Shown in pieces: positions 1,555 through 31,513 of a DNA stretch of 32,000 bases. The stretch spans positions 180,001-212,000 of the forward strand of contig FP565575.1 of assembly GCA_000091165.1 (NCBI GenBank), read 5' to 3'. Both the position numbers and the translations under genes were made by a program. The notes beneath the pieces were generated by a model, which worked only from the letters and a program-made list of their open reading frames with translations, searched no databases and was not told the origin of the DNA. This stretch comes from Candidatus Methylomirabilis oxygeniifera (GTDB taxonomy: Bacteria > Methylomirabilota > Methylomirabilia > Methylomirabilales > Methylomirabilaceae). The first letter of the stretch is position 1; the number at the start of each line of letters is the position of its first letter.

Positions 1555-2399
1555 TCTTGGGCAGTAGGCGTGTTCCGATTCTAATGTATCATAACGTGGA
1601 GGATCCGGCGCGGGAACGGTTCCGTGTTCAGATGCGACTGCTCAGTCGATTTGGTTACCGAACGATCGTTTTCGCGGATCTCGTATCGCAGGTCAGGGAG
1701 GGAAGAACCATAGCGGCAAAAACCGTCGTACTGACGTTTGATGACGGCACGGCGGATCATTATCGAAACGTGTTCCCTACCCTGGAAGAGTTTGGTTTGG
1801 TGGGGACCTTCTTCGTGAGTCCTGATCTTATTGGGACAACTAAGTGGATGATCAAGTACGGGGATACCAAATCCCGCGTGTGGTTCGATGAGGTTCCTGG
1901 ACAGTGTTCAAAGCGAGGGGACTCGGCTCCCAGGAAGTTCTGCCATCTAAGTTGGGATGAAGTCGTGAAGATGCATCATGCCGGACAAGAGATCGGCTCG
2001 CACGGGCTCACCCATCCTTTTCTCACGGGAATTCCACTCTCCGAGGCCGAACGAGAGATTTATCGGTCGAGCGAGCAGTTGGCCGCCAGTTTGGGAGGAC
2101 CGATTAGTACGTTTTGCTATCCCTTCGGAGACTGGAGCATGGCTGTCCGGGAGACGGTCCGGGCGGCGGGGTATCGGGGCGCATGTGTCACCGCTCCCAC
2201 ATCGACCTGTGAGGTATCGTTTGACGATCTCTTTACGCTTGGTCGTCTGCCAGCGAATACGGAGATGCCCATGTGGGCCTTCTGGTTGGTGATCTCCGGC
2301 GGCGATTTCTTTCGTCGCCGGATCAATCGACTTCCCGGGATAGAACCGATTTTCCAGTTAAGGCGGGATTTGCGAAGAGCGCTTCGACAGTGGAGGTGA
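1551..2399 (+). CDS. Polysaccharide deacetylase, CE4 / NodB-homology domain
   Basis: VVLTFDDGTADHY (CE4 motif 1, Asp-Asp), GSHGLTHPFL (His-x4-His motif 2) and FCYPFG. Start overlaps the flippase stop (ATGA). Confidence 0.85.
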   Translation: MILGSRRVPILMYHNVEDPARERFRVQMRLLSRFGYRTIVFADLVSQVREGRTIAAKTVVLTFDDGTADHYRNVFPTLEEFGLVGTFFVSPDLIGTTKWMIKYGDTKSRVWFDEVPGQCSKRGDSAPRKFCHLSWDEVVKMHHAGQEIGSHGLTHPFLTGIPLSEAEREIYRSSEQLAASLGGPISTFCYPFGDWSMAVRETVRAAGYRGACVTAPTSTCEVSFDDLFTLGRLPANTEMPMWAFWLVISGGDFFRRRINRLPGIEPIFQLRRDLRRALRQWR

Positions 2400-2458
2400 C
2401 TCCAACGTGACTGCCGCGTCTTCTTCCATTACGACCGCCAATCGGCCCACCTCATACA

Positions 2459-2839
2459 ATGTCCTCTGACCCCATGGCTATTTGTACTAGCGCTGTAGGT
2501 CTCCTGAAAGAGAGAGGGTTGCTCATCATGAAGGTGGCATATTTGCGGGAGCGGAACTATTGGCTTGTGGGCCTGACCTGTTTCGTCAGGAACAGAGGAC
2601 AGTTGCTCCTTTTGCTGCCGAGCCAAATGTTCAGTTTTCCTCCTCGGACGATTGATGTGATGTGCCGGAAATTGGAAATCAGAATTGTGTTGCGTGCGGC
2701 AATTGGCGAAATCCCACATCGGCGAGCGCTTCCTCAGACTCTCTCGGAGTGTGTATGGTTATTGAGGAAGAAGGGAATTGAGGGCCTCAACGGCAAGCCA
2801 ACCTACATCATTTATACCGAGAAGGGTGGTCCGGCATGA
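2459..2839 (+). CDS. Hypothetical small protein (126 aa), doubtful
   Basis: Only sizeable sense ORF in the 436-bp gap 2400-2835. Its stop overlaps the next ATG (ATGA at 2836-2839). No recognisable motif or convincing RBS, and an antisense ORF of similar size covers the same DNA. Confidence 0.2.
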   Translation: MSSDPMAICTSAVGLLKERGLLIMKVAYLRERNYWLVGLTCFVRNRGQLLLLLPSQMFSFPPRTIDVMCRKLEIRIVLRAAIGEIPHRRALPQTLSECVWLLRKKGIEGLNGKPTYIIYTEKGGPA

Positions 2840-4005
2840 CGCGACCCAAGATCCTGTACGTCGTTCCCAGGCTTGGGGAGGGCGGGACTGAGCAGCACTT
2901 GCTGAGGTTACTTTCGCACCTGCCGACGAACGCATTGGAATACTCCTTCGCATGTTTGCGTCGGCAAGGCCCGCTATTGCCGGATTTCAAGAAGCTTGGT
3001 GTATCCATCATCGAGTTTTCGACTCCGCACACCACGTCGGGACGAATTCGGAGAGTGATCGAGTTAGCCCGATTTATGCGGCGAGAGCACGTCACTATCG
3101 TTGAGACCATGATGGGGATGACATCGTTCTATGGCGCGCTGGCGGCCTACGTGGCGCGGGTACCTGTAGTGATCTGCAATCAGCGCGAGATGGGGTATCG
3201 CGTTGACACGGGAGCAAGGCGACTGCTGCTGAAGTTGCAAATGCGATATTTTTCGACGCATGTCATCACAAATGCACGGGCCATTAAGGAATCGTTGGTG
3301 CGGGGGGGGTACTGCCCGGAGCGGAAGATTGCGGTTGTATACTCCGGAATTCCGATGGATGTCGTCGTTACACCTCTATCGGCTAATGCCGAACGACGGC
3401 GTCTCGAATTGTCGCCGGACGATATCGTAGTGGGGTGTGTGGCGAGGCTCGTGGCGGTGAAAGGACTTGACGGTCTGGTGAAGACGATTCCTCGAGTGCT
3501 TCGACACCTTCCGCGTGTTCGATTTGTTATCGTGGGGGAAGGACCGGAGCGTGCAGTGCTTGAGCGCATGAGACAAGAGCTTGGCATCGAGCGCGCCCTT
3601 CGTCTGGCCGGCTACAGCGCGGATCCGAGTGAGATCATTGCCTGTTCCGATATCTGTGTACAGCCGTCGTTGTCCGAAGGACTGCCGACCGCAGTGCTCG
3701 AATATATGCGAGCCGGAAAGCCGGTCGTTGCGACCGCGGTGGGCGGAATACCCGAGGCCATCGTGGACCGTCAGAGCGGCTTGTTGGTTCGACCGGGCGA
3801 CCTGGACGCGCTGTCTGATAGCATCATTCGGCTCGCCTCAGATCCCATGCTCCGGACACAGATGGGGGAACAAGGCCGGGAGATCGTAAGGCGGCGTTTT
3901 GATATTGGACAAGTTGCAAAACACTACGAGTTGCTGTACCACGAATTGATCAGAGGAATCGGGCCTAACTTTTCCGAGTGGGCGACTGAGCGATTCGGCG
4001 GTTAA
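2836..4005 (+). CDS. Glycosyltransferase family 4 (GT-B, retaining type)
   Basis: N-terminal KILYVVPRLGEGGTEQH. C-terminal E-x7-E block EGLPTAVLEYMRAGKPVVATAVGGIPEAIVDRQSGLLVRPGD. Confidence 0.9.
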   Translation: MTRPKILYVVPRLGEGGTEQHLLRLLSHLPTNALEYSFACLRRQGPLLPDFKKLGVSIIEFSTPHTTSGRIRRVIELARFMRREHVTIVETMMGMTSFYGALAAYVARVPVVICNQREMGYRVDTGARRLLLKLQMRYFSTHVITNARAIKESLVRGGYCPERKIAVVYSGIPMDVVVTPLSANAERRRLELSPDDIVVGCVARLVAVKGLDGLVKTIPRVLRHLPRVRFVIVGEGPERAVLERMRQELGIERALRLAGYSADPSEIIACSDICVQPSLSEGLPTAVLEYMRAGKPVVATAVGGIPEAIVDRQSGLLVRPGDLDALSDSIIRLASDPMLRTQMGEQGREIVRRRFDIGQVAKHYELLYHELIRGIGPNFSEWATERFGG

Positions 4006-4022
4006 GGGGAAACGACGCAACT

Positions 4023-5183
4023 GTGGGTACTCCACGGATACGAGTGGCGCTGGTGATCGCTACGTTAAACTATGGCGGGGCCCAGGTCCAGTTGTGCCAT
4101 CTTGCCAAGTTGTTAAGACGGTACAAGTACGAGGTGATGGTGTGTTGTGTCACCAGGGGTGGGCCGCTTGCCGAGGATCTCCGAGAAGCCGAGGTTGAGG
4201 TCCGGGTCATCGGGAAACGACACAAGCTCGACGTCACGGTTCTCTGGAAGTTAATTCGGATCTTTAAATCGTATCGGCCGGACATAGTACATTGTCAGCT
4301 TTTTACCGCCAATATGTGGGGCCGGCTCGCCGCACGGATTTCTGGGATACGGGGTATTATTGCAACGGTCCTTTCCCTCGAAGCCGATCGCGGAATTTCG
4401 TACGTCCTGGTCGACCGATTGCTTGCTCATGTTACCGATCGAATCGTCTGTAATACGTGGGAGATCAAGGGATATCTGGCAGAGGGGGAGAAGATGGACC
4501 CTGGTAAGCTGACCGTAGTCCACAACGGAGTCGATACCGATTGGTCCGGTAGCTGGCTTGCGGCCCATGGCATCCTGCCGCTCGGTTCGTCTAAGTCAGC
4601 CTTGGGGTTGGCGCCCCATCGGCCGGTTGTAGGAATGGTGTGCCGCTTCGATCCGCGAAAGGGGATCGAAATATTTTTGGACGCTTGTGAACTACTTCTA
4701 AGACAACGGGACGATGTGCAGTTCCTATTGGTTGGGGATGCTGATCCCGCTCAACCCGACCAAGTCGCCTGCAAGGCCCAGGTCATGAAGCGACTCGAAC
4801 AGTCACCATTGAGTTCCTCGGTTGTCCTGCCTGGACTGGCTGCAGACGTACGCCCGCTATTGCATTGCATGAATGTGTTCGTCTTGACATCGCATACCGA
4901 GGGACTTCCGAATGCCTTGATGGAGGCTATGGCGATGGAACGGCCTATCGTGGCTACGACGGTAGGCGGCGTACCGGAGTTGGTGAGGCACGAGATTGAC
5001 GGATTGCTGGTTCCACCCGGCGACCCCGAAGCCGTGGCTAATGCCGTACTGCGCCTTCTCCAACAACCGGACGTGGCTTGGGTGATGGCAAGGAAAGCCA
5101 GAGAGCGCATGTGCGAGGACTTCTCGCTTGCGCGTATGGTGTCGGATACAACCAAAATATACCATGAAGTTCTCCGTATGTAA
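4023..5183 (+). CDS. Glycosyltransferase family 4
   Basis: GTG start preceded by AAGGGGAAA. RVALVIATLNYGGAQVQ at the N-terminus. EGLPNALMEAMAMERPIVATTVGGVPELVRHEIDGLLVPPGD near the C-terminus. Confidence 0.9.
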   Translation: MGTPRIRVALVIATLNYGGAQVQLCHLAKLLRRYKYEVMVCCVTRGGPLAEDLREAEVEVRVIGKRHKLDVTVLWKLIRIFKSYRPDIVHCQLFTANMWGRLAARISGIRGIIATVLSLEADRGISYVLVDRLLAHVTDRIVCNTWEIKGYLAEGEKMDPGKLTVVHNGVDTDWSGSWLAAHGILPLGSSKSALGLAPHRPVVGMVCRFDPRKGIEIFLDACELLLRQRDDVQFLLVGDADPAQPDQVACKAQVMKRLEQSPLSSSVVLPGLAADVRPLLHCMNVFVLTSHTEGLPNALMEAMAMERPIVATTVGGVPELVRHEIDGLLVPPGDPEAVANAVLRLLQQPDVAWVMARKARERMCEDFSLARMVSDTTKIYHEVLRM

Positions 5184-9496: not shown

Positions 9497-10378
9497 TTGG
9501 TTGAGGTGCCGTTGAGCCGGAAGTCCGGAATCCCTTGGCAAGTCAAGGTTGCGGCGAAGCTCGTCCTCTCCGCCATACCGCTGCGCTACGGTATGTGGCG
9601 GCGACTGGGCCTATTTCGCCACGGAAAAATGGACCGCCCGAAATATGGCTATGAAGTCTTCAAATGCCACTTTGAGCGGGCGGGTGTCTCCAGGCGAAAC
9701 ACAGGGTTCACCCAATTGGAGCTGGGGCCTGGAGATTCGCTGTGTTCTGCGATGATCGGATATGCGTTCGGGGCGTCTGCGACCTATCTTGTAGATGTGG
9801 GATCGTATGCGCAAGATGACTTAGGTTTCTACCATTCAATGGCCGGCTTTCTCTCTCAGGAGGGCCTGGAGGCGCCGGATCTATCGCACGCGAGGTGTCT
9901 GAATGATCTACTTGCAGTCTGTGGGGCGCAATACTTGACCCAGGGGCTGGCTTCGTTAAGAACTATTCCCGATCAATCGATTCATTTCATCTGGTCGCAT
10001 GCCGTCCTTCAATCCGTCAGACGGAGCGAGTTCGTGGATACGTTGAAGGAGCTACGCCGAATAATTCGTAGCGACGGCGTGTGTTCCCACCAAATAGATC
10101 TCCGGGACTTCCTGGGCGGCAATCTGAATAGCTTAAGATTCCGAAAGGAGCTGTGGGAGTCCGATTTCATGATTCGGTCGAGGTTTTATACGAATCGGAT
10201 TCGGTATTCGGAAATGTTGCGACTCTTTGAGCAGACCGGCTTTGACGTCCACGTGAGCGACGCGTCTCGGTGGGACACGTTGCCGATATCGAGGGCCAAG
10301 TTGTCGCCAGAGTTCAGGTGTTTGTCGGATGGCGAGCTCTGCGTATCGGGTTTTGGGGTGGTCCTCCGTCCGCGCTAG
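9497..10378 (+). CDS. Class I SAM-dependent methyltransferase (TTG start, uncertain)
   Basis: Motif I LELGPGDSL, followed by YLVDV (post-I acidic residue) and IHFIWSHAVLQSV (motif II-like). No clear RBS, so the start could be internal. Confidence 0.7.
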   Translation: MVEVPLSRKSGIPWQVKVAAKLVLSAIPLRYGMWRRLGLFRHGKMDRPKYGYEVFKCHFERAGVSRRNTGFTQLELGPGDSLCSAMIGYAFGASATYLVDVGSYAQDDLGFYHSMAGFLSQEGLEAPDLSHARCLNDLLAVCGAQYLTQGLASLRTIPDQSIHFIWSHAVLQSVRRSEFVDTLKELRRIIRSDGVCSHQIDLRDFLGGNLNSLRFRKELWESDFMIRSRFYTNRIRYSEMLRLFEQTGFDVHVSDASRWDTLPISRAKLSPEFRCLSDGELCVSGFGVVLRPR

Positions 10379-10505
10379 ACCATCATGGCTACCGCTACAT
10401 TGTTTCGGCCGAGCGACAATTCTGCCGGACCTTGCGTGAAGTAGCGCTTCGTCTTGAGGGACGCGTCGGAGAGGCTGTTTTATAAGGGCTCCTATAGGGT
10501 CTACC

Positions 10506-24742: not shown

Positions 24743-25015
24743 AAAATCTCCCCTCGCCCCTCTTTTCCAAAGAGGGGTATTCACCATATTTCCCCCTTTC
24801 GCAAAGGGGGGGTAAGGGGGGATTTGAACGATCAGAAAAACCCCCTCAATCCCCCTTTGCAAAAGGGGGAGAAGAAGTAGATGTGCAAGCATGTGGTCCC
24901 CCCTTGCCTGCCAAAGGGGGAGAAGAGGTAGCAGGTGGTCCCCCCCTTTGGAAAAGGGGGGCTAGGGGGGTTTTCCCTTTGCTGAAGAGGGAGAAAGGGT
25001 AGGGGGAGGGGATTT
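24743..25015. repeat. Array of at least 6 C5/G5 nested-hairpin (PPFxKGG-type) repeat units, in both orientations
   Basis: Units include TCCCCCTTTCGCAAAGGGGGGGTAAGGGGGGATTT, AAACCCCCTCAATCCCCCTTTGCAAAAGGGGGAGAAGAAGTAGATGTGCAAGC and GGTCCCCCCCTTTGGAAAAGGGGGGCTAGGGGGGTTTT. They fill most of the 512-bp gap between the YVTN and BNR genes. Confidence 0.85.
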
Positions 25016-25174
25016 CCGATTCCTACCTGCTTGTGCGTATCTGTAACGCAGACAGGTTCATTCACGCTAATTCCAGAAGAACCATAATTTATAGCCTTCA
25101 ATATTTAGCCTAAACACCTGAGTCGTGACGAGTCATCGACAATACACAATAACTGAAATGGAGGTAATGCCTAC

Positions 25175-26698
25175 ATGAGGATCCACCGTGGCTGGTGTTG
25201 GCGGCTGATCGCTCTTGCGCTTCTTGGAGGTCTGACCGCTTGCGCCATGATCAGGGAACCATCGCCGGCCCCCTCTGCAGGGACTGTTCGAAGGCCGCGT
25301 CCTGCAACACCCCAGGAGCCGCAGGCGCCGGGTTTCTTTTCGCCGCTGCTGACCTTTGGGGGGGATAATGAACTCTATCTGATGTGGGCGTCGGGCACGC
25401 TGTATAAGAAGCAGAACGATATCCATTTCTCCCGATCCGTAGACGATGGGCTGACATGGGATGCGCACAAATCCCTCAAGGCGGATCCGACGCGTAATAC
25501 AGGGGGAAGACAGATTGTGGCCGATCGGAACGGGAATGTCATGGCCTTCTGGGGGGCCGGGCTGCGGACAGGCAACATCGATGTGGTGGCGGCGCGCTCG
25601 GAAGATCATGGCGCCAATTGGACTCCGCCTCAAGGTCTCTATAAGGGCGAGATCCATGTTCCCAGTCTCATCACCGGACCGAACGGGGAGTATGTCAGCA
25701 TCATTCCGGAGGGCCCGGAATCGAATTGGAGGCTGGTGTTCTTCCGTTCGGTCGATGGCGGAAAGATCTGGGAACAGCTCCCAACACTGAACGGTACACT
25801 CGGGACGGATTCTCAATTCGGGATTCGATCGTCACAGATCGTTGCCGACCGTAATGGCCGGCTCCATGTCGTCTGGCAGGAGCGTGGGCGCGGACAAAGA
25901 GAACGAATCTATTACAACAGGCTCGAGTCGGCGAACGCGCACGGGGCATGGCTGCCTGAGGCCGTTCAATTAAGCGCGGGAGAAGCCGACTCCTCCGGGG
26001 CCTATCGTCCTCAGATCAGTGTCGATGCGGACGGTCATCTCTTCGTGGCGTGGGTGGAGGCATGGGACCCCGGTAACGCCGCTCTTGGTGAGGGACAGCA
26101 CCCGCAGTCGGTCTACTTTACGCGATCGATGGATGGAGGGCGAACCTGGCTCGCACAGCCGATTCGACTGAGTCGAACGGGACCGGAAGCTCTCCGCCAC
26201 GTGGCGACCCACGTTGAGGTAGCCAATGATGGGAAGGGCCGGATCTATGTCGCATGGCGAGAGGAGGTCGGTTTTCCCAGAGTGGAACGGCTGGTCTTCC
26301 AAGGGTCCACGGACTATGGGGCGACGTGGATCTCTGAACCTCGATCCCTGCGTGAGATCAAACCCTTCCCCGCCATCCACGCGCGGTTCCATCTGAAGAG
26401 CGGCGAGAACGGCCGTGTCTACCTTCTCTGGCAGATGGCGGGTTTTGCCTGGGATCTGTTCTTTATGCAATCGACTGATGGGGGGATGACGTGGTCGAAG
26501 GCGCCGATCCGCCTGGCCACCCTGCCGCAGACCGACCCCGGCGCCCATGATGTGGCCTTTGAGACGAGAGGATCACACCTGTATGTGGCCTGGGACATCG
26601 GGCCGAAGCTTCCGAGCGAGATCTTTGTGAATCGTTCAACCGATTTTGGCAGGACATGGCTGACCCGAGAGGTGCAGGTCACCAAGCGAGAACCGTGA
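25175..26698 (+). CDS. BNR/Asp-box repeat beta-propeller lipoprotein (sialidase-fold)
   Basis: GGAGG lies 10 nt upstream. Lipobox LLGGLTA-C. Seven S-x-D-x-G-x-(T/I/N)-W boxes: SVDDGLTW, SEDHGANW, SVDGGKIW, SMDGGRTW, STDYGATW, STDGGMTW, STDFGRTW. Confidence 0.85.
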   Translation: MRIHRGWCWRLIALALLGGLTACAMIREPSPAPSAGTVRRPRPATPQEPQAPGFFSPLLTFGGDNELYLMWASGTLYKKQNDIHFSRSVDDGLTWDAHKSLKADPTRNTGGRQIVADRNGNVMAFWGAGLRTGNIDVVAARSEDHGANWTPPQGLYKGEIHVPSLITGPNGEYVSIIPEGPESNWRLVFFRSVDGGKIWEQLPTLNGTLGTDSQFGIRSSQIVADRNGRLHVVWQERGRGQRERIYYNRLESANAHGAWLPEAVQLSAGEADSSGAYRPQISVDADGHLFVAWVEAWDPGNAALGEGQHPQSVYFTRSMDGGRTWLAQPIRLSRTGPEALRHVATHVEVANDGKGRIYVAWREEVGFPRVERLVFQGSTDYGATWISEPRSLREIKPFPAIHARFHLKSGENGRVYLLWQMAGFAWDLFFMQSTDGGMTWSKAPIRLATLPQTDPGAHDVAFETRGSHLYVAWDIGPKLPSEIFVNRSTDFGRTWLTREVQVTKREP

Positions 26699-27450
26699 AG
26701 GCCGGTCAGACCGATCCGAAAACCCGCCGCCACAAGCCTGCGGCCGCGCTGTCGAACCGAGGATTCCATGATCGCGAGTGGTGGCCGGTTCTTGTCATCG
26801 TCGTAGTGACGGGCATAGTGTATGCCAATGCCTTTCAGAATGAGTTTCTCTTCGATGATCTTCAGACCATTGTGGAACTCCAGCAAGGAGGAGGGAAGGG
26901 GGCCTTCGCCGACGTCGTAGAGCTACTGCGTGGTCGGCCGTCGTATCGACCCGTCAGAACCGCCTCCTATGCGTTCGACTATGCCCTTTCAGGGCTTGAG
27001 CCGTGGGGGTATCATCTGACCAATATCGTCTACCACACGCTGACGGCGGTATTCGTGTACCTGACGGCCAGGTCTGTGTTTGGCCGGGTCCGCCCGGCGC
27101 TCCTGACGGCCCTGCTGTTCGCGATCCACCCCATCCAGACGGATGCTGTAACCTACATGTCCGGCCGCCGCGATGTCCTCTCCGGCCTGTTCGTTCTGGC
27201 CGGTTTCTATCTTTACGTGCGATATCGGACAACAGGCCGTATCTGGTATCTTGCGGCCGTACTTCCGGTATATGTGCTGGGCTTCTTTTCCAAGGAGAGC
27301 GGGATCATCCTGCCGGCCCTCTGCGTGGCGTACGATGTCTTCAGACATCTGACTCGGGAGGAACACCATGAGGCGGAGGCGGCCTACGGCGTACGAAACC
27401 CCCCTAACCCCCCTTTCGCAAAGGGGGGCCACGGGGGGGGATTTGGCTAA
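26695..27450 (+). CDS. N-terminal membrane part of a TMTC-like GT-C glycosyltransferase (fragment; probably one gene with 27501-28631)
   Basis: The likely GTG start at 26695 overlaps the BNR stop (GTGA); the track's ATG at 26656 would overlap by 43 nt. IVYANAFQNEFLFDDLQTIV is the typical TMTC/PMT_2-like opening. The ORF ends inside a repeat, reading ...RNPPNPPFAKGGHGGGFG*. Confidence 0.7.
   Translation: MKAGQTDPKTRRHKPAAALSNRGFHDREWWPVLVIVVVTGIVYANAFQNEFLFDDLQTIVELQQGGGKGAFADVVELLRGRPSYRPVRTASYAFDYALSGLEPWGYHLTNIVYHTLTAVFVYLTARSVFGRVRPALLTALLFAIHPIQTDAVTYMSGRRDVLSGLFVLAGFYLYVRYRTTGRIWYLAAVLPVYVLGFFSKESGIILPALCVAYDVFRHLTREEHHEAEAAYGVRNPPNPPFAKGGHGGGFG
27396..27444. repeat. C5/G5 nested-hairpin repeat inside the GT-C gene, with a G8 homopolymer
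   Basis: AAACCCCCCTAACCCCCCTTTCGCAAAGGGGGGCCACGGGGGGGGATTT: an outer C6/G8 stem and an inner CCCCCCTTT/AAAGGGGGG stem. Confidence 0.85.
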
Positions 27451-27500
27451 TAGACTTTTCTAAGGTATGGACAGGGCAGAAGCCGGCGCCGTTCGGAAAC

Positions 27501-28631
27501 GTGTGGGCGGCGATCAGGGGGGCCGTGTGGGAGTCCAGGTGGCTGTACCTGCCGATGGCTGCCATCGGGGGCGGCCTTGCGGCATACGTCCTGCTGCTGG
27601 TGCGCGGAACCTGGCAACAGGATTATCACGGCGGAAGCCTGTGGTTTACGCTGCTGACGATGGCGAGGGTCTTCTCGTATTATCTCAGGCTTCTCATTCT
27701 TCCCGTAAATCTGAATGCCGACTACTCCTACAATGCCTTTCCTGTCACCACCTCGTGGGCTGACCCGAGCGCAGGACTGGCTGTGCTGTTTCTCGCCGGC
27801 CTGTGGTACGCGATCCTGGTCTGCGCCAGAATCAGGCCGGTAGCCGCGTTTGGGGGCGCCTGGTTTTTTCTAGCGTTGCTGCCGGTGTCGCAGATTATTC
27901 CGCATCACGAGATGGTGGCTGAGCACTACGTGTACGTTCCATCGGTCGGGTTTGCCGTGGCCGTGGCGGGGCTGTTCGATCCCTTGCTGGATGATCCTCT
28001 CCGCCGCCGGGTCCTGTACCCGGCAGGCCTGCTTGTACTCATGCTGCTTTCAGTCAGGACGGTATGGCGGAACTTCGATTGGCGGGACGAGTTGACGCTG
28101 TGGCGGAAGACTGTGCAGACCGCGCCGGATTCGGCGAGGGCGCGGAACAATCTGGGTGGGGCATATCTTCGGTCCGGTCAACCGACATTGGCCGAGACGC
28201 ACCTCGAGGCCGCCCTGCGCATCAGGCCCGACTTCGCCTCGGCCAGGGCCAACATGGGGAAGCTGTATATGGACCGTGGAGATCTTGATATGGCCGAACG
28301 TGAACTGAATACCGCATTGATACTGAAGCAGCGCGACGCGATACCGCGTTTATGGCTGGGCGTCGTCCAGGCCCGTAAGGGTGAGATCGCCGCAGCCGAA
28401 GCCCAGTTTCGAACGACGATGGACACATTCCCGTACGGAGCGTATGCGTACAACAACATGGGAGTGCTGTTTGTCCGGACCGGTCGGCTTGCTGAGGCTG
28501 AGTCGCTTTTCCGTGAGGCGTTGCGGCTGATGCCGGAGCTGACCGAGGCCAGGGATAATCTGGCGCGCTTATCTCGGATCGACGGCTCAGGCATTCCTCC
28601 GGTCGGACCAGGGATGGCGGGCACGCCGTGA
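27501..28631 (+). CDS. C-terminal part of the TMTC-like GT-C protein: TM segments (DUF1736-like) plus TPR repeats
   Basis: This frame is open from 27372. HHEMVAEHYVYVPSVGFAVAVAG resembles the DUF1736 AERxLYxPSxG block. At least five TPR-like repeats follow (ARNNLGGAYLRSGQ..., ARANMGKLYMDRGD..., AYNNMGVLFVRTGR...). Confidence 0.75.
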   Translation: MWAAIRGAVWESRWLYLPMAAIGGGLAAYVLLLVRGTWQQDYHGGSLWFTLLTMARVFSYYLRLLILPVNLNADYSYNAFPVTTSWADPSAGLAVLFLAGLWYAILVCARIRPVAAFGGAWFFLALLPVSQIIPHHEMVAEHYVYVPSVGFAVAVAGLFDPLLDDPLRRRVLYPAGLLVLMLLSVRTVWRNFDWRDELTLWRKTVQTAPDSARARNNLGGAYLRSGQPTLAETHLEAALRIRPDFASARANMGKLYMDRGDLDMAERELNTALILKQRDAIPRLWLGVVQARKGEIAAAEAQFRTTMDTFPYGAYAYNNMGVLFVRTGRLAEAESLFREALRLMPELTEARDNLARLSRIDGSGIPPVGPGMAGTP

Positions 28632-29569
28632 CAGAGCAGGTCAAGCCGCTGATATCCGTAATCGTCCCTCTCTACAACGAAGCGGAAAGCGTGCCGGAAC
28701 TCTATTCCGAGCTGGCCGAGGCGCTGAGGCCGCACTCAGATCGATGTGAAATGATATTCGTCGACGATGGCAGTCGTGATGGGTCGTGTGAAAGACTCCA
28801 GGCGATCCGGGAAACGGATGCGCGGGTCAAGATCGTTCGGTTACGTGTCAACCAGGGCAAGTCGACGGCATTGCAGGCCGGTTTCAGGGAGGCCGAAGGG
28901 CAAATCATTGTCACGCTTGATGCCGATCTGCAGGATGATCCAAAAGAGATTCCAAGGTTTCTTCAGAAGCTTGAAGAAGGGTTCGATCTTGTATCCGGCT
29001 GGAAGGTGAAGCGCTACGATCCGTGGTTCCGCCGGTTTCTTTCCGCTATCTTCAACCGGATAACCTCACGGTTTACCGGTGTCAGGCTGCACGATTTCAA
29101 CTGCGGTTATAAGGCCTACCGGCGAGCAGTCATAGGCGAATTGCGCCTGTACGGGGAGTTGCACCGCTTTATTCCGGTGCTGGCAAGCTGGCGGGGTTTC
29201 AGGATCGGTGAGATCGAGGTCGCCCACCGCGCGCGGCGCTACGGTCTGTCCAGGTATGGGATAGAGCGGATACCCAGAGGGTTCTTCGACCTGCTGACCG
29301 TGCTGATGCTGACGCGGTATACGACACGCCCCCTGCACTTTTTCGGCTTGGTCGGGGTGCTGGTCGGCTTGATCGGGTTTGGGATTATCGGGTATCTCTC
29401 GATCGGATGGCTGTTCGGCCAGTGGATAGGTGGCCGCCCCCTTTTCATTCTGGGAACGCTGATGGTCATTGGCGGCCTGCAGCTTGTGTCGTTTGGGCTG
29501 TTGGCAGAGATGATCGTCTACGGCTCCACGCGGGAAAGCGATCCCCCCATCGATCTGGTCCTCAAATAA
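28628..29569 (+). CDS. GT2 polyprenyl-phosphate sugar synthase (DPM1/ArnC/GtrB-like) with two C-terminal TM helices
   Basis: GTG start overlaps the upstream stop (GTGA). ISVIVPLYNEAESV, MIFVDDGSRDGS, VTLDADLQDDPKEIP (DxD region). C-terminal hydrophobic hairpin FFGLVGVLVGLIGF...ILGTLMVIGGLQLVSFGLLAEM. Confidence 0.9.
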   Translation: MTEQVKPLISVIVPLYNEAESVPELYSELAEALRPHSDRCEMIFVDDGSRDGSCERLQAIRETDARVKIVRLRVNQGKSTALQAGFREAEGQIIVTLDADLQDDPKEIPRFLQKLEEGFDLVSGWKVKRYDPWFRRFLSAIFNRITSRFTGVRLHDFNCGYKAYRRAVIGELRLYGELHRFIPVLASWRGFRIGEIEVAHRARRYGLSRYGIERIPRGFFDLLTVLMLTRYTTRPLHFFGLVGVLVGLIGFGIIGYLSIGWLFGQWIGGRPLFILGTLMVIGGLQLVSFGLLAEMIVYGSTRESDPPIDLVLK

Positions 29570-29618
29570 CGCAGAGTCAAAGAATAACATGTACATATTC
29601 ATGATCCGAAAAATGCGC

Positions 29619-29660
29619 AAACCCCCTCTTCCCCTTTCGAAAGGGGGATGAAGGGGGTTT
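29619..29660. repeat. Complete nested-hairpin repeat; likely a bidirectional intrinsic terminator after the GT2 operon
   Basis: AAACCCCCTCTTCCCCTTTCGAAAGGGGGATGAAGGGGGTTT is an almost perfect 42-bp palindrome. It is followed by GTTGCTTTGG, and on the other strand by TTTGCGCATTTTT. It lies 50 nt after the GT2 stop. Confidence 0.6.
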
Positions 29661-29765
29661 GTTGCTTTGGTAGATGTAAATGTTAATTGTTGACGCCTCC
29701 TAACGCTGGCTCTTCCGAAATGAGCATGGGTAGAGACCGAGTCTTCAGCGCTGGACACGGGGACA

Positions 29766-29848
29766 CCCCCTTTGGTAACGGGGGAGAAAAGAAGGATATG
29801 CAAGCGTCTGGTCCCCCCCCTTTGGAAAAGGGGGGCTAGGGGGGTTTC
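29766..29848. repeat. Composite repeat unit (two hairpins plus a conserved linker) abutting the DUF559 start
   Basis: CCCCCTTTGGTAACGGGGGAGAAAAGAAGGATATGCAAGCGTCTGGTCCCCCCCCTTTGGAAAAGGGGGGCTAGGGGGGTTTC. The linker and second hairpin match 24877-24975. Confidence 0.85.
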
Positions 29849-29851
29849 TCA

Positions 29852-30202
29852 TTGATCCTGCCCTACAATAAGGACCTCAAAGGTTATGCCCGCTCCCTGC
29901 GGAAGAATATGACCGACGCCGAGCGAACACTGTGGTCCCTGATCAGGCGAAAGCAAGCGAAAGGCCGTCTCTTTTCACGTCAAAAGACGATTGACAATTA
30001 CATTGTGGATTTTTACTGCGCCTCAGCCGCACTCGTCATCGAACTTGATGGAGGACAACATTATACGCCGGAGGGTCGTGAGCAGGACCGATGGCGCGAT
30101 GCTGACCTGGCGGCGCGTGGGTTGACAGTGTTGAGGTTTTCCGATCGGGACGTGCTGACAAATCTTGAAGGCGTACTAGAAGAGATCTGGCAACATCTCT
30201 GA
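29852..30202 (+). CDS. DUF559 endonuclease-domain protein (Vsr-like, PD-(D/E)xK superfamily)
   Basis: TTG start. LPYNKDLKGYARSLRKNMTDAERTLWSLIRRKQ...FSRQKTIDNYIVDFYCASAALVIELDGGQH...RDADLAARGLTVLRFSDRDVLTNLEGVLEEI is the typical DUF559 layout with the D...E-x-D core. Confidence 0.85.
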   Translation: MILPYNKDLKGYARSLRKNMTDAERTLWSLIRRKQAKGRLFSRQKTIDNYIVDFYCASAALVIELDGGQHYTPEGREQDRWRDADLAARGLTVLRFSDRDVLTNLEGVLEEIWQHL

Positions 30203-30214
30203 GGGAAAGAAGCG

Positions 30215-30261
30215 AAACCCCCTCAATCCCCCTTTACGAAAGGGGGAGACAGAGTAGATGT
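30215..30261. repeat. Nested-hairpin repeat unit immediately downstream of DUF559, inverted relative to 29821-29848
   Basis: AAACCCCCTCAATCCCCCTTTACGAAAGGGGGAGACAGAGTAGATGT is nearly identical to 24838-24884. Confidence 0.85.
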
Positions 30262-30369
30262 AGAACTCCCGTGTCCAGCAACCCAGGTTATGGGACATGG
30301 TCAGCTCTCGGAGGGAGAGAGAAGGACAAAGCAACCCACACGAGTTCCGGAAGAGTCCCGAAATAACGC

Positions 30370-31017
30370 TCATCGCTTGTGTGTGGCAGCCCCCTTTGCA
30401 CGCTTTCGGCGGCTGGGCTTGACCTCCGCTGTTTGGGCGTGCTGCGGCCACCAGAAGGCTGTCGCCGCAAACCAGAGCAGGATCGGGAAGAGACCGAACC
30501 CGTTGACGGAAAAGAAGGCGTAGCCCCACTCGTACAGCTTGACTGTAAACGAAGAAGCGGCCTCAGGCATCATGCCGTGCGCCTGCAGCCCTGGATAGAC
30601 GGCGGTCCAGCGTAGCTTGATGTACAGGTCGGCAAGATGCAGCATCGACAGCCCCGCCCCACCGGCCAGGCAGATCTTGGCTTTCGTTGCCAGGCCAAGC
30701 AGCGGCGTGGCAATGGTCAGGGAGACGAGCAGGATCATGTTGACGTAGGTGGCGTCGTCGAGCACATTGACGGTGGCCATGCCGGCAGACCCATCCGACT
30801 TGGTCACTGGTCTGACGATCCAGACCCGCCGATCCCTAGCTTCGAGATGACTGTCCGGCGGAAGCATCCCCGTCGCATGCAGAATGGTCTGCCCGACCGT
30901 AGCCATTCCCTGAGCGTACAAAGGGGAGAGGAAACGCCAGACGGCGAGCAGCAGCAACAGCGCAATGGTAAACCATGCGGTGAAACGGCCGATTCTAGCT
31001 CTGAGGGTGGCGAGCAA
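30370..31017 (-). CDS. Exosortase-associated polytopic membrane protein (start uncertain)
   Basis: About four TM segments, with a basic C-terminal tail KPSRRKRAKGAATHKR. The track start (31125) and the ATG at 31080 would overlap real exosortase TM coding by 131 or 86 nt. A TTG at 31017 gives LLATLRARIGRF followed by a TM segment, with only a 23-nt overlap. Confidence 0.5.
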   Translation of the reverse strand: MLATLRARIGRFTAWFTIALLLLLAVWRFLSPLYAQGMATVGQTILHATGMLPPDSHLEARDRRVWIVRPVTKSDGSAGMATVNVLDDATYVNMILLVSLTIATPLLGLATKAKICLAGGAGLSMLHLADLYIKLRWTAVYPGLQAHGMMPEAASSFTVKLYEWGYAFFSVNGFGLFPILLWFAATAFWWPQHAQTAEVKPSRRKRAKGAATHKR

Positions 31018-31513
31018 GGGCCCCTGCCCAGAATAGCCAGAGGCCCAGGGCGAAGACGATGAAGAGCGACTGCCAGACATAGATATGCGCGGTGTCAAAG
31101 TACGGGCGAAAGTGGCTTCCGACATAGATCAGGCTGAGCACCCGCATCAGGTTCAGAATATACAGCGCGCCGCTGCCCAGGAGCACGCCCCAGAGACGTT
31201 GTCGCCAGGTCGCCGGATAAGCGAGTATTGCCGACACGAACAGGGCCGTCTCGTAGATGGCGTTGCAATTGTTCTGAATCGCCACCGAGAAGAGGGGGGT
31301 TGTGACCACCTTGTCATGCACCGTGGCCTCCGTCCCGCCGAGCAGCAGAATGGTTCGCGCGAGTTGAGCGATTCCCCTGGTAAAAGGATCGACAAGCTGT
31401 CGGTCCAGACCGTACAGCAGGCCGAACAGGCCCAGGATATACAGGCCAAACAGCAGTGCGCTGCGTCGGATCTGGGCGCGAGGAGATGGTGATTCAACCT
31501 CTGAGGTTTGCAT
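30995..31513 (-). CDS. Short-form exosortase/archaeosortase-family transpeptidase (XrtH/XrtF size class)
   Basis: 172 aa. Candidate catalytic Cys in FSVAIQNNCNAIYETALFVSAILAYP, Arg in LYILNLMRVLSLIYVG and His in DTAHIYVWQ, in the order expected for the Cys/Arg/His exosortase core. Multi-TM. No clear RBS. Confidence 0.7.
   Translation of the reverse strand: MQTSEVESPSPRAQIRRSALLFGLYILGLFGLLYGLDRQLVDPFTRGIAQLARTILLLGGTEATVHDKVVTTPLFSVAIQNNCNAIYETALFVSAILAYPATWRQRLWGVLLGSGALYILNLMRVLSLIYVGSHFRPYFDTAHIYVWQSLFIVFALGLWLFWAGALARHPQS

Follow-up and report, generated by a model that had tools for sequence, protein, structure and literature searches.

The DNA analysed here (the window) is a stretch of 32,000 nucleotides (nt) from Candidatus Methylomirabilis oxygeniifera (FP565575.1, positions 180,001 to 212,000). 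In it, a GT2 glycosyltransferase gene and two convergent exosortase-locus genes are separated by an 800-nt spacer, and the sole credible gene inside this spacer is an open reading frame (ORF; 29852 to 30202, plus strand) that encodes a DUF559 protein and is closely bracketed by short inverted repeats (Table 1). The initial annotation, made from the letters alone, had described a 116-amino-acid (aa) DUF559 ORF standing by itself in a gap of about 800 base pairs (bp), and this is borne out by the list of ORFs and by a match to Pfam family PF04480 (E=5.2e-35), in which residues 8 to 116 align with positions 2 to 108 of the 109-position model. The tight placement of the repeats that it described also holds. 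The left repeat ends at 29848, 3 nt (TCA) before the TTG start; an in-frame TAG at 29837 to 29839 lies inside it and spans the junction between linker and arm; and the G-run of its third arm is the sole Shine-Dalgarno-like element before the TTG. The right repeat, said to begin 12 nt past the stop codon, starts at 30213 to 30215, or 10 to 12 nt past it, a trivial difference that depends on the base counted first. The two flanks are reverse complements, with 82% complementarity over 33 nt (29816 to 29848 versus 30214 to 30246).

The repeat family extends well beyond the flanks of this gene. A detector of pyrimidine/purine hairpins reports nine in the window, with starts at 24757, 24791, 24850, 24897, 24940, 27408, 29629, 29814, and 30227, and the motifs AAACCCCC-N2-6-CCCCTTT and CCCCCTTT-N2-6-AAAGGGGG have 7 and 6 matches, respectively, when 0.00 are expected for each. 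The earlier statement that the family recurs elsewhere in the window is correct, but its count of four other places is too low, there being at least eight more copies.

Table 1. Features of the DUF559 locus and of related repeats in the window.
Feature	Position	Strand	Details
DUF559 (YcjD-like, Vsr-fold PD-(D/E)xK) nuclease gene, stand-alone	29852..30202	+	TTG start; 116 aa; Pfam PF04480
Upstream triplex-type unit	29814..29848	+	Hairpin 29814-29835 (CCCCCCCTTTGGAAAAGGGGGG); linker CTA 29836-29838; G/T third arm GGGGGGTTTC 29839-29848
Downstream triplex-type unit, inverted	30215..30247	-	C-rich arm AAACCCCCT 30215-30223; linker CAA 30224-30226; hairpin TCCCCCTTTACGAAAGGGGGA 30227-30247
Degenerate family hairpin CCCCCTTTGGTAACGGGGGAGA	29766..29787		Followed by array spacer motif GATATGCAAGCGTCTGG
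Double-armed palindromic copy ("nested hairpin" form)	29618..29661		C-arm 29618-29627; hairpin 29629-29648; G-arm 29652-29661; 50 nt past GT2 stop
Cluster of five family hairpins, intergenic	24745..24974		Repeat detector and arm analysis
Cluster hairpin	24757-24777		C-arm 24745-24753
Cluster hairpin	24791-24811		G-arm 24816-24824
Cluster hairpin	24850-24870		C-arm 24838-24846
Cluster hairpin	24897-24921		No arm
Cluster hairpin	24940-24961		G-arm 24965-24974
Double-armed copy within coding region	27396..27443		Part of an insertion of about 107 nt
Outer inverted repeat, left copy GCTGGACACGGG	29750..29761		Cut-down remnant of a terminal inverted repeat of about 70 nt
Outer inverted repeat, right copy	30268..30330		30268-30279 is the perfect complement of 29750-29761
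GT2 glycosyltransferase gene	28628-29569	+	Left border of the 800-nt spacer
Exosortase-locus genes, convergent pair	30370-31125 and 30995-31513	-	Right border of the spacer

The conserved unit is asymmetric, comprising an all-pyrimidine 5′ arm, an all-purine 3′ arm, and a single additional arm located 1 to 6 nt away. This third arm reads as the mirror image of the purine arm, G facing G and either A or T facing A (AAAGGGGGG with GGGGGGTTT, AAAGAGGGG with GGGGAGATT, and AAAGGGAGG with GGAGGGATT). Eight of the nine window hairpins have a third arm with one mismatch or fewer to the mirror, and only two copies have arms on both sides; the arm of the upstream unit agrees with the mirror at 9 of 10 positions, and that of the downstream unit, in a purine-motif reading on the minus strand, at 9 of 9. 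Over 88 units situated beside DUF559 genes, the mirror match is 98.5%, versus 72.5% (standard deviation, 1.5%) when arms are shuffled between loci. Because the third arm mirrors the purine arm, the unit is a class II (purine-motif) potential intrastrand triplex, and the window repeats agree with that class, whose third arm mirrors the purine arm in antiparallel fashion and whose stems measure 8 to 10 nt and loops 1 to 6 nt. Pairing of the outer arms with each other was rejected as a general rule, in that most units are one-armed and the arm covaries as the mirror of the purine arm. The term "nested hairpin" in the initial annotation therefore fits the copies at 27396 to 27443 and 29618 to 29661, which have both arms, but not the general unit of a hairpin and one arm.

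The window repeat belongs, as a variant in sequence, to the known BoxC/PIT/TM class, and the separate family implied by the initial annotation falls away, since the class is already described (PMC4666352) and the outer arm is its mirror third strand rather than chiefly a Watson-Crick partner of the arm across the ORF. Repeats named BoxC, PIT, and TM_ECO have been catalogued since the 1990s (Bachellier, 1990s; Hoyne and Maher, 2000 and 2002; Holder et al., 2015), with a published TM_ECO pattern of CCCTCNCCC-N3-6-GGGNGAGGG-N3-GGGNGAGGG and 3610 copies in 262 proteobacterial genomes; Escherichia coli K-12 has 23 (PMC4666352). The window units resemble them in having three blocks (pyrimidine arm, purine arm, and G-rich mirror third arm) separated by loops of 2 to 6 nt and in being intergenic, multicopy, often arranged as inverted pairs with arms inward, and conserved in distant bacteria. 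They differ in sequence, reading CCCCCTTT / AAAGGGGG / GGGGGTTT rather than CCCTCNCCC / GGGNGAGGG and thus lying outside the TM_ECO consensus, and in bracketing a nuclease gene. In vitro, the isolated TM_ECO single strand folds as a triplex, TM_ECO being the only member for which such folding is published; TM repeats are also obstacles to DNA polymerase in vitro, and local genomic variability and instability have been linked to them (PMC4666352).

Published work names no gene associated with these repeats and says that nothing with a mobility function has ever turned up near them (PMC4666352). No mention of DUF559, ycjD, or any nuclease was found in the literature on intrastrand-triplex repeats, and a full-text search of the DUF559 literature returned nothing on repeats. 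The statement in the initial annotation that no link between DUF559 and a hairpin repeat had been described is consistent with our literature search, which found none and had most subscription journals outside its reach. The nearest approach is a paper in which "DUF559 domain-containing protein" appears, without discussion, among the annotations overrepresented in genes that have inverted repeats on both sides and are predicted to be inversion targets (PMC9881135).

The association between gene and repeat was examined in 80 loci obtained from a search of one genome per GTDB species (48 to 67% identity) and in loci from four look-ups of the nearest metagenomic homologues (84 to 92%); individual loci are designated by L numbers. 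Nearly everywhere, the layout is the same: hairpin, linker, and G-rich arm, followed after a few nucleotides by the ORF and, after a few more, by C-rich arm, linker, and hairpin. It occurs in at least 12 phyla in all, including Nitrospirota, Thermodesulfobacteriota, Planctomycetota, Omnitrophota, Elusimicrobiota, Chloroflexota, WOR-3, Bacteroidota/Ignavibacteria, Nitrospinota, Pseudomonadota (Pasteurellaceae, Pseudomonas, Azomonas, and Bradyrhizobium), Bacillota, and Spirochaetota. A hairpin lies within 80 nt of the DUF559 ORF in 71 of 79 cases and at both ends in 38 of 79, whereas control ORFs of 100 aa or more from the same loci have a hairpin near an end in 32 of 381 cases and at both ends in none of 381 (Fisher odds ratio, 97; P=1e-48). 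Both expectations set down in the initial annotation, that other DUF559 ORFs are flanked by the repeat and that the repeats are commoner beside DUF559 than beside other genes, are thus upheld. The density of hairpins within 80 nt of DUF559 ORFs is 9.68 per kb, 36-fold that elsewhere in the same loci (0.268 per kb).

When the nearest armed unit on each side is considered, the third arm faces the ORF in 40 of 43 cases upstream and 44 of 50 downstream, and the median distances are 8 nt from the end of the arm to the start codon and 7 nt from the stop codon to the start of the C-arm. Close homologues share the units themselves: the upstream unit is at the same place in L001, L002, L003, and L190 to L192, and the downstream unit is nearly identical to those of L001, L002, L191, and L192, as well as to window positions 24838 to 24870. 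In more distant relatives the architecture is retained but the sequences change, as in the form CCCTCTCCC...GGGAGAGGG-nnn-GGGGTGAGGG, and Bacillota and some other loci have an extra small hairpin in the linker. Flanks of TM_ECO type (CCCTCTCCC / GGGAGAGGG / GGGTGAGGG arms) occur at the distant DUF559 loci L063, L074, and L076, and the flanks of the Pseudomonas and Bradyrhizobium genes closely resemble the published TM_ECO pattern. Identity between proteins correlates with identity between their flanking purine arms (Spearman rho, 0.665, a value reached by 0 of 500 permutations), indicating that gene and flanks diverge as one unit.

Copies of the repeat without an ORF are concentrated around these genes. 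Motif density declines from 6.26 per kb at less than 150 nt from DUF559 to 0.83 at 150 to 500 nt and about 0.075 at more than 500 nt, as opposed to one motif in 513 kb (0.002 per kb) in 80 metagenomic control loci picked as relatives of the GT2 gene; repeat abundance thus tracks DUF559, as the initial annotation anticipated, and literature counts for E. coli agree. Distant copies have the purine-arm 7-mer of the local cassette in 55% of cases, versus 20% after shuffling (0 of 500 shuffles reach this value). Neighbouring ORF-less pairs occur in both geometries, and among the 21 pairs with arms inward, 7 have a spacer of 13 to 17 nt, which is about the sum of the two linkers in the ORF-containing form; a published E. 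coli O157 pair, with its 16-nt spacer, is close to this class. The window has such a pair at 24791 to 24870, with about 13 nt between the arms and the same scaffold as the DUF559 cassette, and its alignment with four cassettes displays the 354-nt ORF as a clean presence/absence difference. The cassette and the ORF-less copies of its repeat travel together through bacterial genomes.

Comparison of orthologous regions, which the initial annotation had proposed, confirms that the GT2/exosortase spacer has gained sequence relative to syntenic loci. In L086/L089, where GT2 is 78% identical (aa) to that of the window and gene order is the same on both sides, the spacer is 53 nt long and has neither repeat nor DUF559, versus 800 nt in the window. 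The nearest homologues have the same flanks in at least three different gene contexts, the neighbours being fn3/lyase in L001, an integrase in L003 and L190 (a single locus), and unknown genes in L002. Inside the coding region, the copy at 27396 to 27443 confirms the earlier report of a repeat within a gene, and it splits that gene. The ORFs at 26656 to 27450 and 27501 to 28631 correspond to a single 713-aa membrane/TPR protein in syntenic L086 (ORF 1842 to 3983), and the roughly 107 extra nucleotides that include the double-armed copy add two stop codons and a frameshift, so the window gene at 26656 to 28631 is split or inactivated by the repeat insertion.

In E. coli K-12, ycjD (b1289) ends in CCCTCTCCC-TGA. 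Beyond it come a ghost of the gene's own 3′ end and then, at a distance of 167 nt from the gene, a TM_ECO repeat. That repeat is TM_ECO number 9 of 23, listed without comment between fabI and ycjD in Table S2 of the published survey (PMC4666352). The intervening fabI-ycjD sequence (L084; NC_000913.3, 1351039 to 1351407) has a degraded second ycjD 3′ end (TGGAGACGGTGCTGGAGAATATTCGGCAAGGTCTGAACCG...) ahead of the repeat, and this ghost resembles what would be left of a second or an earlier cassette. According to a separate study, ycjD is characteristic of phylogroups A, B1, and C together with ST69 and ST182, and other groups have the eefRABCD operon at the site (PMC12817139). Of 5426 complete E. 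coli genomes, 3378 have the gene as a single copy at this locus, and K-12 has one ycjD gene against 23 repeats. The TM_ECO counts of Table S7 (PMC4666352), sorted here by the phylogroup of each strain, are 18 to 30 in A, B1, and C (one strain, 13), 10 to 11 in E, 13 in D, 6 to 7 in F, and 1 to 2 in B2 (15 strains with a count; none is entered for strain 536). The counts run in the direction that a link between the gene and repeat load would give, and fit it.

The window protein is predicted to be a nuclease. Its AlphaFold2 model (mean predicted local distance difference test, or pLDDT, 89.3) has as top Foldseek matches 3HRL, 3R3P (the catalytic domain of I-Bth0305I), 4OQ2/4PAR (AbaSI/PvuRts1I), and 1CW0/1VSR (Vsr), and the solved structure closest by sequence is again 3HRL, a Neisseria DUF559 protein (E=5e-16). 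All 40 homologues compared, E. coli YcjD among them, have D53, E64, D66, Q69, and H70 without variation. The modelled fold is thus a Vsr-type alpha/beta nuclease fold with an intact catalytic motif, and both the fold and the putative catalytic residues are those of Vsr and of EDxHD homing endonucleases. Relative to its nearest homologues (84 to 92% aa), the gene has a dS of 0.15 to 0.27 and a dN/dS of 0.24 to 0.37, indicating that it is under purifying selection. The family is large, with 7937 DUF559/YcjD relatives below E=1e-10 among 8000 candidates scored in one search, and the literature search found no published assay of a stand-alone DUF559 protein.

Two other stand-alone DUF559 proteins, YcjD (b1289) and NGO0050 of Neisseria gonorrhoeae (3HRL), share their size, fold, and invariant residues with the window protein. 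The window protein is 44% identical to YcjD, which likewise has a TM_ECO repeat downstream, but it scores below the cutoff of the YcjD equivalog model (79.5 versus 218 bits), and the E. coli locus differs in having no upstream unit and in appearing partly decayed. With Vsr the window protein shares the PD-(D/E)xK Vsr-like fold and the metal-binding residues, but it is shorter, and its neighbours are GT2 and exosortase-locus genes rather than a cytosine methyltransferase. A Vsr/Dcm repair pair was rejected on these grounds, there being no match to PF03852 (Vsr) and no methyltransferase in either flanking gene. Membership in a defence system was also rejected, PADLOC returning only weak, partial matches to the nuclease domains of DpdF and of a type II methyl-directed restriction enzyme. 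EDxHD homing endonucleases (I-Bth0305I, 3R3P; PMC3239194) share the catalytic fold (Foldseek E=5e-4; TM scores, 0.65/0.77), the invariant D, E-x-D, and Q-H motif, an ORF that splits a symmetric DNA site, and an ORF-less form of the site elsewhere. The window ORF differs from them in lying between bacterial operons with no intron or intein host and in lacking an N-terminal NUMOD or helix-turn-helix DNA-binding domain, since at 116 aa it consists of the catalytic domain alone; moreover, the "site" here is a pair of dispersed repeats and not a conserved gene, and the copy number of the nuclease gene is low. A phage-borne homing element was rejected, with only 24 relatives in 2.9 million viral contigs, many of them near contig ends.

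The best reading of these observations, by analogy with RAYT genes and their repetitive extragenic palindromic (REP)/REPIN repeats, is that the DUF559 gene and its triplex-type repeats of about 35 nt form a coupled pair whose enzyme would be a hydrolytic PD-(D/E)xK nuclease. That the two are co-inherited and functionally coupled, with the nuclease acting on the repeat and repair spreading or reshaping the copies, has in our estimation about an even chance of being correct. The cassette gene would be transcribed through the upstream hairpin and its product translated from the G-rich arm as ribosome-binding site; the nuclease would recognise the repeat, either as an arms-inward duplex pair or as a hairpin or triplex fold when the DNA is single-stranded during replication or transcription, and would nick or cut beside it. 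Recombinational repair between copies could then maintain, duplicate, and rearrange the repeats and at times copy or delete the ORF, and the ORF-less arms-inward pairs would be the empty or deleted form of the cassette. The repair-based copying step is less certain than the coupling itself. More broadly, DUF559 may be the missing partner of triplex-type repeats, because the pairing recurs in about 70 loci and a dozen phyla. The corresponding proposal, that DUF559/YcjD proteins are the cognate enzymes of BoxC/PIT/TM repeats, recognise the folded or paired repeat, and drive its spread and instability through cleavage and host repair, is put forward tentatively, with a likelihood somewhat short of even.

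The likeness to the REP/REPIN-RAYT system is one of organization: short, structured, dispersed repeats; a usually single-copy gene of nuclease type between two inverted copies; ORF-less inverted doublets as the common dispersed form; and a repeat type that tracks the lineage of the gene. The enzymes differ, DUF559 having no Y1_Tnp match and not being an HUH tyrosine transposase (IS200/IS605-like), and, because the enzyme is hydrolytic with a Vsr fold and not HUH, covalent cut-and-rejoin chemistry is unavailable to it. The repeats also differ, with triplex-type mirror symmetry here and a simple hairpin with a GTAG tag in REP. The link between DUF559 and the repeats provides a testable hypothesis for both the repeats and the YcjD/DUF559 family in a model organism. 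If the nuclease does act on the repeat, there would be a second partnership of nuclease and dispersed repeat beside RAYT/REPIN, mechanistically independent, self-maintaining, and spread over at least a dozen phyla including E. coli K-12; strain differences in repeat load and local instability would be explained, and a small protein would be seen to recognise a defined non-B DNA motif.

Several points weigh against this coupling. The sample consists mostly of metagenome-assembled genomes and metagenome contigs chosen by similarity to the query, in which loci rather than whole genomes were scanned, and the motif detectors are our own heuristic scripts. Eight of the 79 DUF559 ORFs have no detectable repeat, and 41 of the 79 have it on one side only or on neither. 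Binding and cleavage of the repeat by the DUF559 protein are steps that we infer, and a stable triplex has been detected neither in vivo nor in duplex DNA (PMC4666352). A PD-(D/E)xK hydrolase cannot perform strand transfer, and copying must consequently rely on host recombination, which is speculative. In E. coli, ycjD is single copy at one fixed locus with no visible mobility there; groups D, E, and F keep 6 to 13 repeats although they are reportedly without ycjD; and the correlation between ycjD and repeats is confounded by phylogeny. Finally, the outer terminal inverted repeats (TIRs) found around the cassettes of L165, L041, and the window mean that a trans-acting DDE transposase can explain movement of the cassette, at least there.

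This last point leads to the view that the cassette is merely cargo of small TIR elements moved in trans by DDE transposases, with the hairpins serving as subterminal structural or packing parts and the protein acting elsewhere or on nothing in the host. The 24-kb L165 contig contains two cassettes that are about 96% identical and lie 6 kb apart in different contexts (4010 to 4532 and 9950 to 10415), and copy 1 is bounded by a TIR of 24 nt, GGCTCATCGTGTAAGAGTGTGGGT at one end and the reverse complement at the other, its junctions being marked by the perfect 8-bp direct repeat ATAATTTT. Since this cassette lies in a conventional element with TIR and target-site duplication (TSD), a trans-acting transposase is indicated there; GG ends with an 8-bp duplication suggest that it may be one of ISL3 type. 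A related 27-nt TIR (GGsTCwT...GTGGGTAAA) surrounds the L041 cassette, with the left end alone in L026, L029, L032, L038, and L042, and the window shares a different outer inverted repeat with L002, L003, and L190, the intact form of about 70 nt being present in L003/L190 and at the left of L002. Similarity of the right window copy to the right terminal repeat of L003/L190 runs to about position 30330 (alignment score, 84), and no TSD can be defined for the window unit because the left outer repeat is truncated. L165 copy 1 and the 12-nt perfect outer repeat of the window thus recall miniature inverted-repeat transposable elements (MITEs), but MITEs normally have no ORF and most DUF559 loci have no outer TIR. 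Ends of the GTGGGTAAA type occur in only 6 of 85 ORFs scanned, plus L165, and an exact flanking inverted repeat of at least 11 nt that is not classed as repeat-like occurs in 10 of 72 loci, five of which are still hairpin-loop sequence of the repeat; a universal outer TIR was rejected, 62 of the 72 loci having no such exact repeat. The hairpin/arm layout extends far beyond the outer-TIR lineages (E. coli, Pseudomonas, Bradyrhizobium, Bacteroidota, and Bacillota), and the trend so far is for outer TIR families to vary while the inner layout remains constant. Transport as cargo leaves unexplained why the cargo is always DUF559, when 0 of 381 other ORFs are bracketed, and why mirror arms and a strict arms-inward orientation are maintained. 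As the general account it is therefore unlikely, and we treat the outer TIRs as probable lineage-specific carriers outside the core system. The autonomous ORF-plus-TIR unit of the initial annotation is not sustained either, given a hydrolase without strand-transfer chemistry, a single-copy ycjD, and a cassette that in L165 sits inside a TIR/TSD element.

The flanks might instead be cis-acting expression parts, the G-arm providing the ribosome-binding site, the 5′ and 3′ hairpins stabilising or insulating the transcript, and pairing of the arms throttling a toxic nuclease, with dispersed copies being decayed cassettes or a host repeat. The position of the G-rich arm a median of 8 nt before the start, as the sole Shine-Dalgarno-like element, speaks for this, as do ghost ORF fragments beside E. 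coli repeats, the spacer of an ORF-less pair in L025 that retains start-like and stop-like cassette ends, and the persistence of repeats in E. coli groups without ycjD. Scanning 29.5 to 30.45 kb yielded no promoter-like site and, in particular, no sigma-70-type promoter between repeat and ORF, which also favours it; a terminator scan of the same interval gave one site, inside the ORF on the opposite strand, no more than in shuffled sequences. We nonetheless consider expression parts an improbable explanation of the whole, as PIT elements acted neither as promoters nor as terminators in E. coli (work cited in PMC4666352), a terminator or stabiliser needs no mirror third arm downstream, where the arm is conserved and oriented, and decay alone cannot yield a motif density about 40-fold over the control, with copies inside genes as well. 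The mirror constraint points to DNA, because purine-motif triplexes do not form in RNA according to the cited literature. A caretaker role is similarly doubtful: here the repeats are hazardous non-B DNA spread by slippage, recombination, or an unknown enzyme, and DUF559 resolves stalled forks or folded repeats and is kept nearby by co-transfer or autoregulation. A Vsr-like nicking fold that recognises distorted DNA, the polymerase block and local instability reported for the repeats (PMC4666352), and the stable single-copy locus of E. coli all suit a caretaker, but such an enzyme need not lie precisely inside a repeat pair at single-digit nucleotide distances in a dozen phyla, nor need gene and flanks diverge as one unit; B2 strains, without the gene and nearly without repeats (1 to 2), fit a producer or partner role equally. 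Mere coincidence, with the GT2/exosortase spacer as a dumping ground for unrelated repeats and a stray ORF, draws on the other repeat modules and the truncated outer inverted repeat in the spacer; it is refuted by the recurrence of the layout, at a fixed orientation and spacing, in 71 of 79 loci (P=1e-48) and retains almost no probability. None of these rivals accounts as well as the coupled gene-repeat pair for bracketing restricted to DUF559, inward arms at fixed distances, and a two-sided mirror constraint.

At the Pasteurellaceae loci L053, L054, and L057, repeated MITE-like units lie 3′ of DUF559 (about 5374 to 5805 in L054), each consisting of C-arm and hairpin, about 85 nt, and hairpin and G-arm. 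The repeat in these units, AAATCTCCCC..CCCCTCTTTGCTAAAGAGGGG, is almost identical to those of Nitrospirota and Thermodesulfobacteriota cassettes in spite of the very different host, a likeness which suggests that the cassette and its repeats may have been transferred horizontally.

The two ends of the spacer between GT2 and the neighbouring gene (p251) in the window have a 15-nt direct repeat (GTCCTCAAATAACGC / GTCCCGAAATAACGC, 13 of 15 identical) at 29558 to 29572 and 30355 to 30369, the first copy covering the GT2 stop codon and the second ending one base before the stop of the other gene. It could be a duplication from insertion of a 780-nt block, but it was not taken as a target duplication, a 13/15 match being expected about 0.4 times by chance in the region by our own estimate. 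A 50-aa ORF at 29687 to 29839, which overlaps the repeat region 5′ of DUF559 and has no Pfam match, is probably not a gene, because it is made mostly of repeat sequence. An Rfam scan of 24.5 to 30.6 kb at E values up to 1 returned only chance microRNA-like hairpins far below gathering scores, and a known RNA family there was rejected on this result.

The hairpins located 5′ of the cassette form tandem-like arrays with units of about 55 to 60 nt, each a hairpin with the spacer GAGA..GTAGATG.GCAAGC.TG.GGT, at 210 to 560 in L003, 600 to 890 in L190, and 24870 to 24940 and 29787 to 29813 in the window; the array spacer motif GATATGCAAGCGTCTGG is common to window positions 24876 to 24896 and the L003/L190 arrays. 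L003 and L190, which represent one locus in related strains, have different numbers of units, indicating that the arrays expand and contract. A second conserved intergenic module, GGGGATTTCCGATTCCTACCTGC-TGTGCGTATCTGTAACGCAGACAGGTTCA-CACGCTAATTCC-GAAGAACC, has its own small hairpin (TGCGTA...TACGCA) and occurs at 24980 to 25090 in the window, where it lies behind the ORF-less repeat cluster, and at 545 to 610 in L001 and about 560 to 660 in L191, where it lies behind the DUF559 cassette. The module GGGGATTTCCGATTCCT...GTGCGTATCTGTACGCAGACAGGTTCA likewise comes after the cassette in L001 and L191, and in the window (at about 25.0 kb) after the ORF-less cluster.

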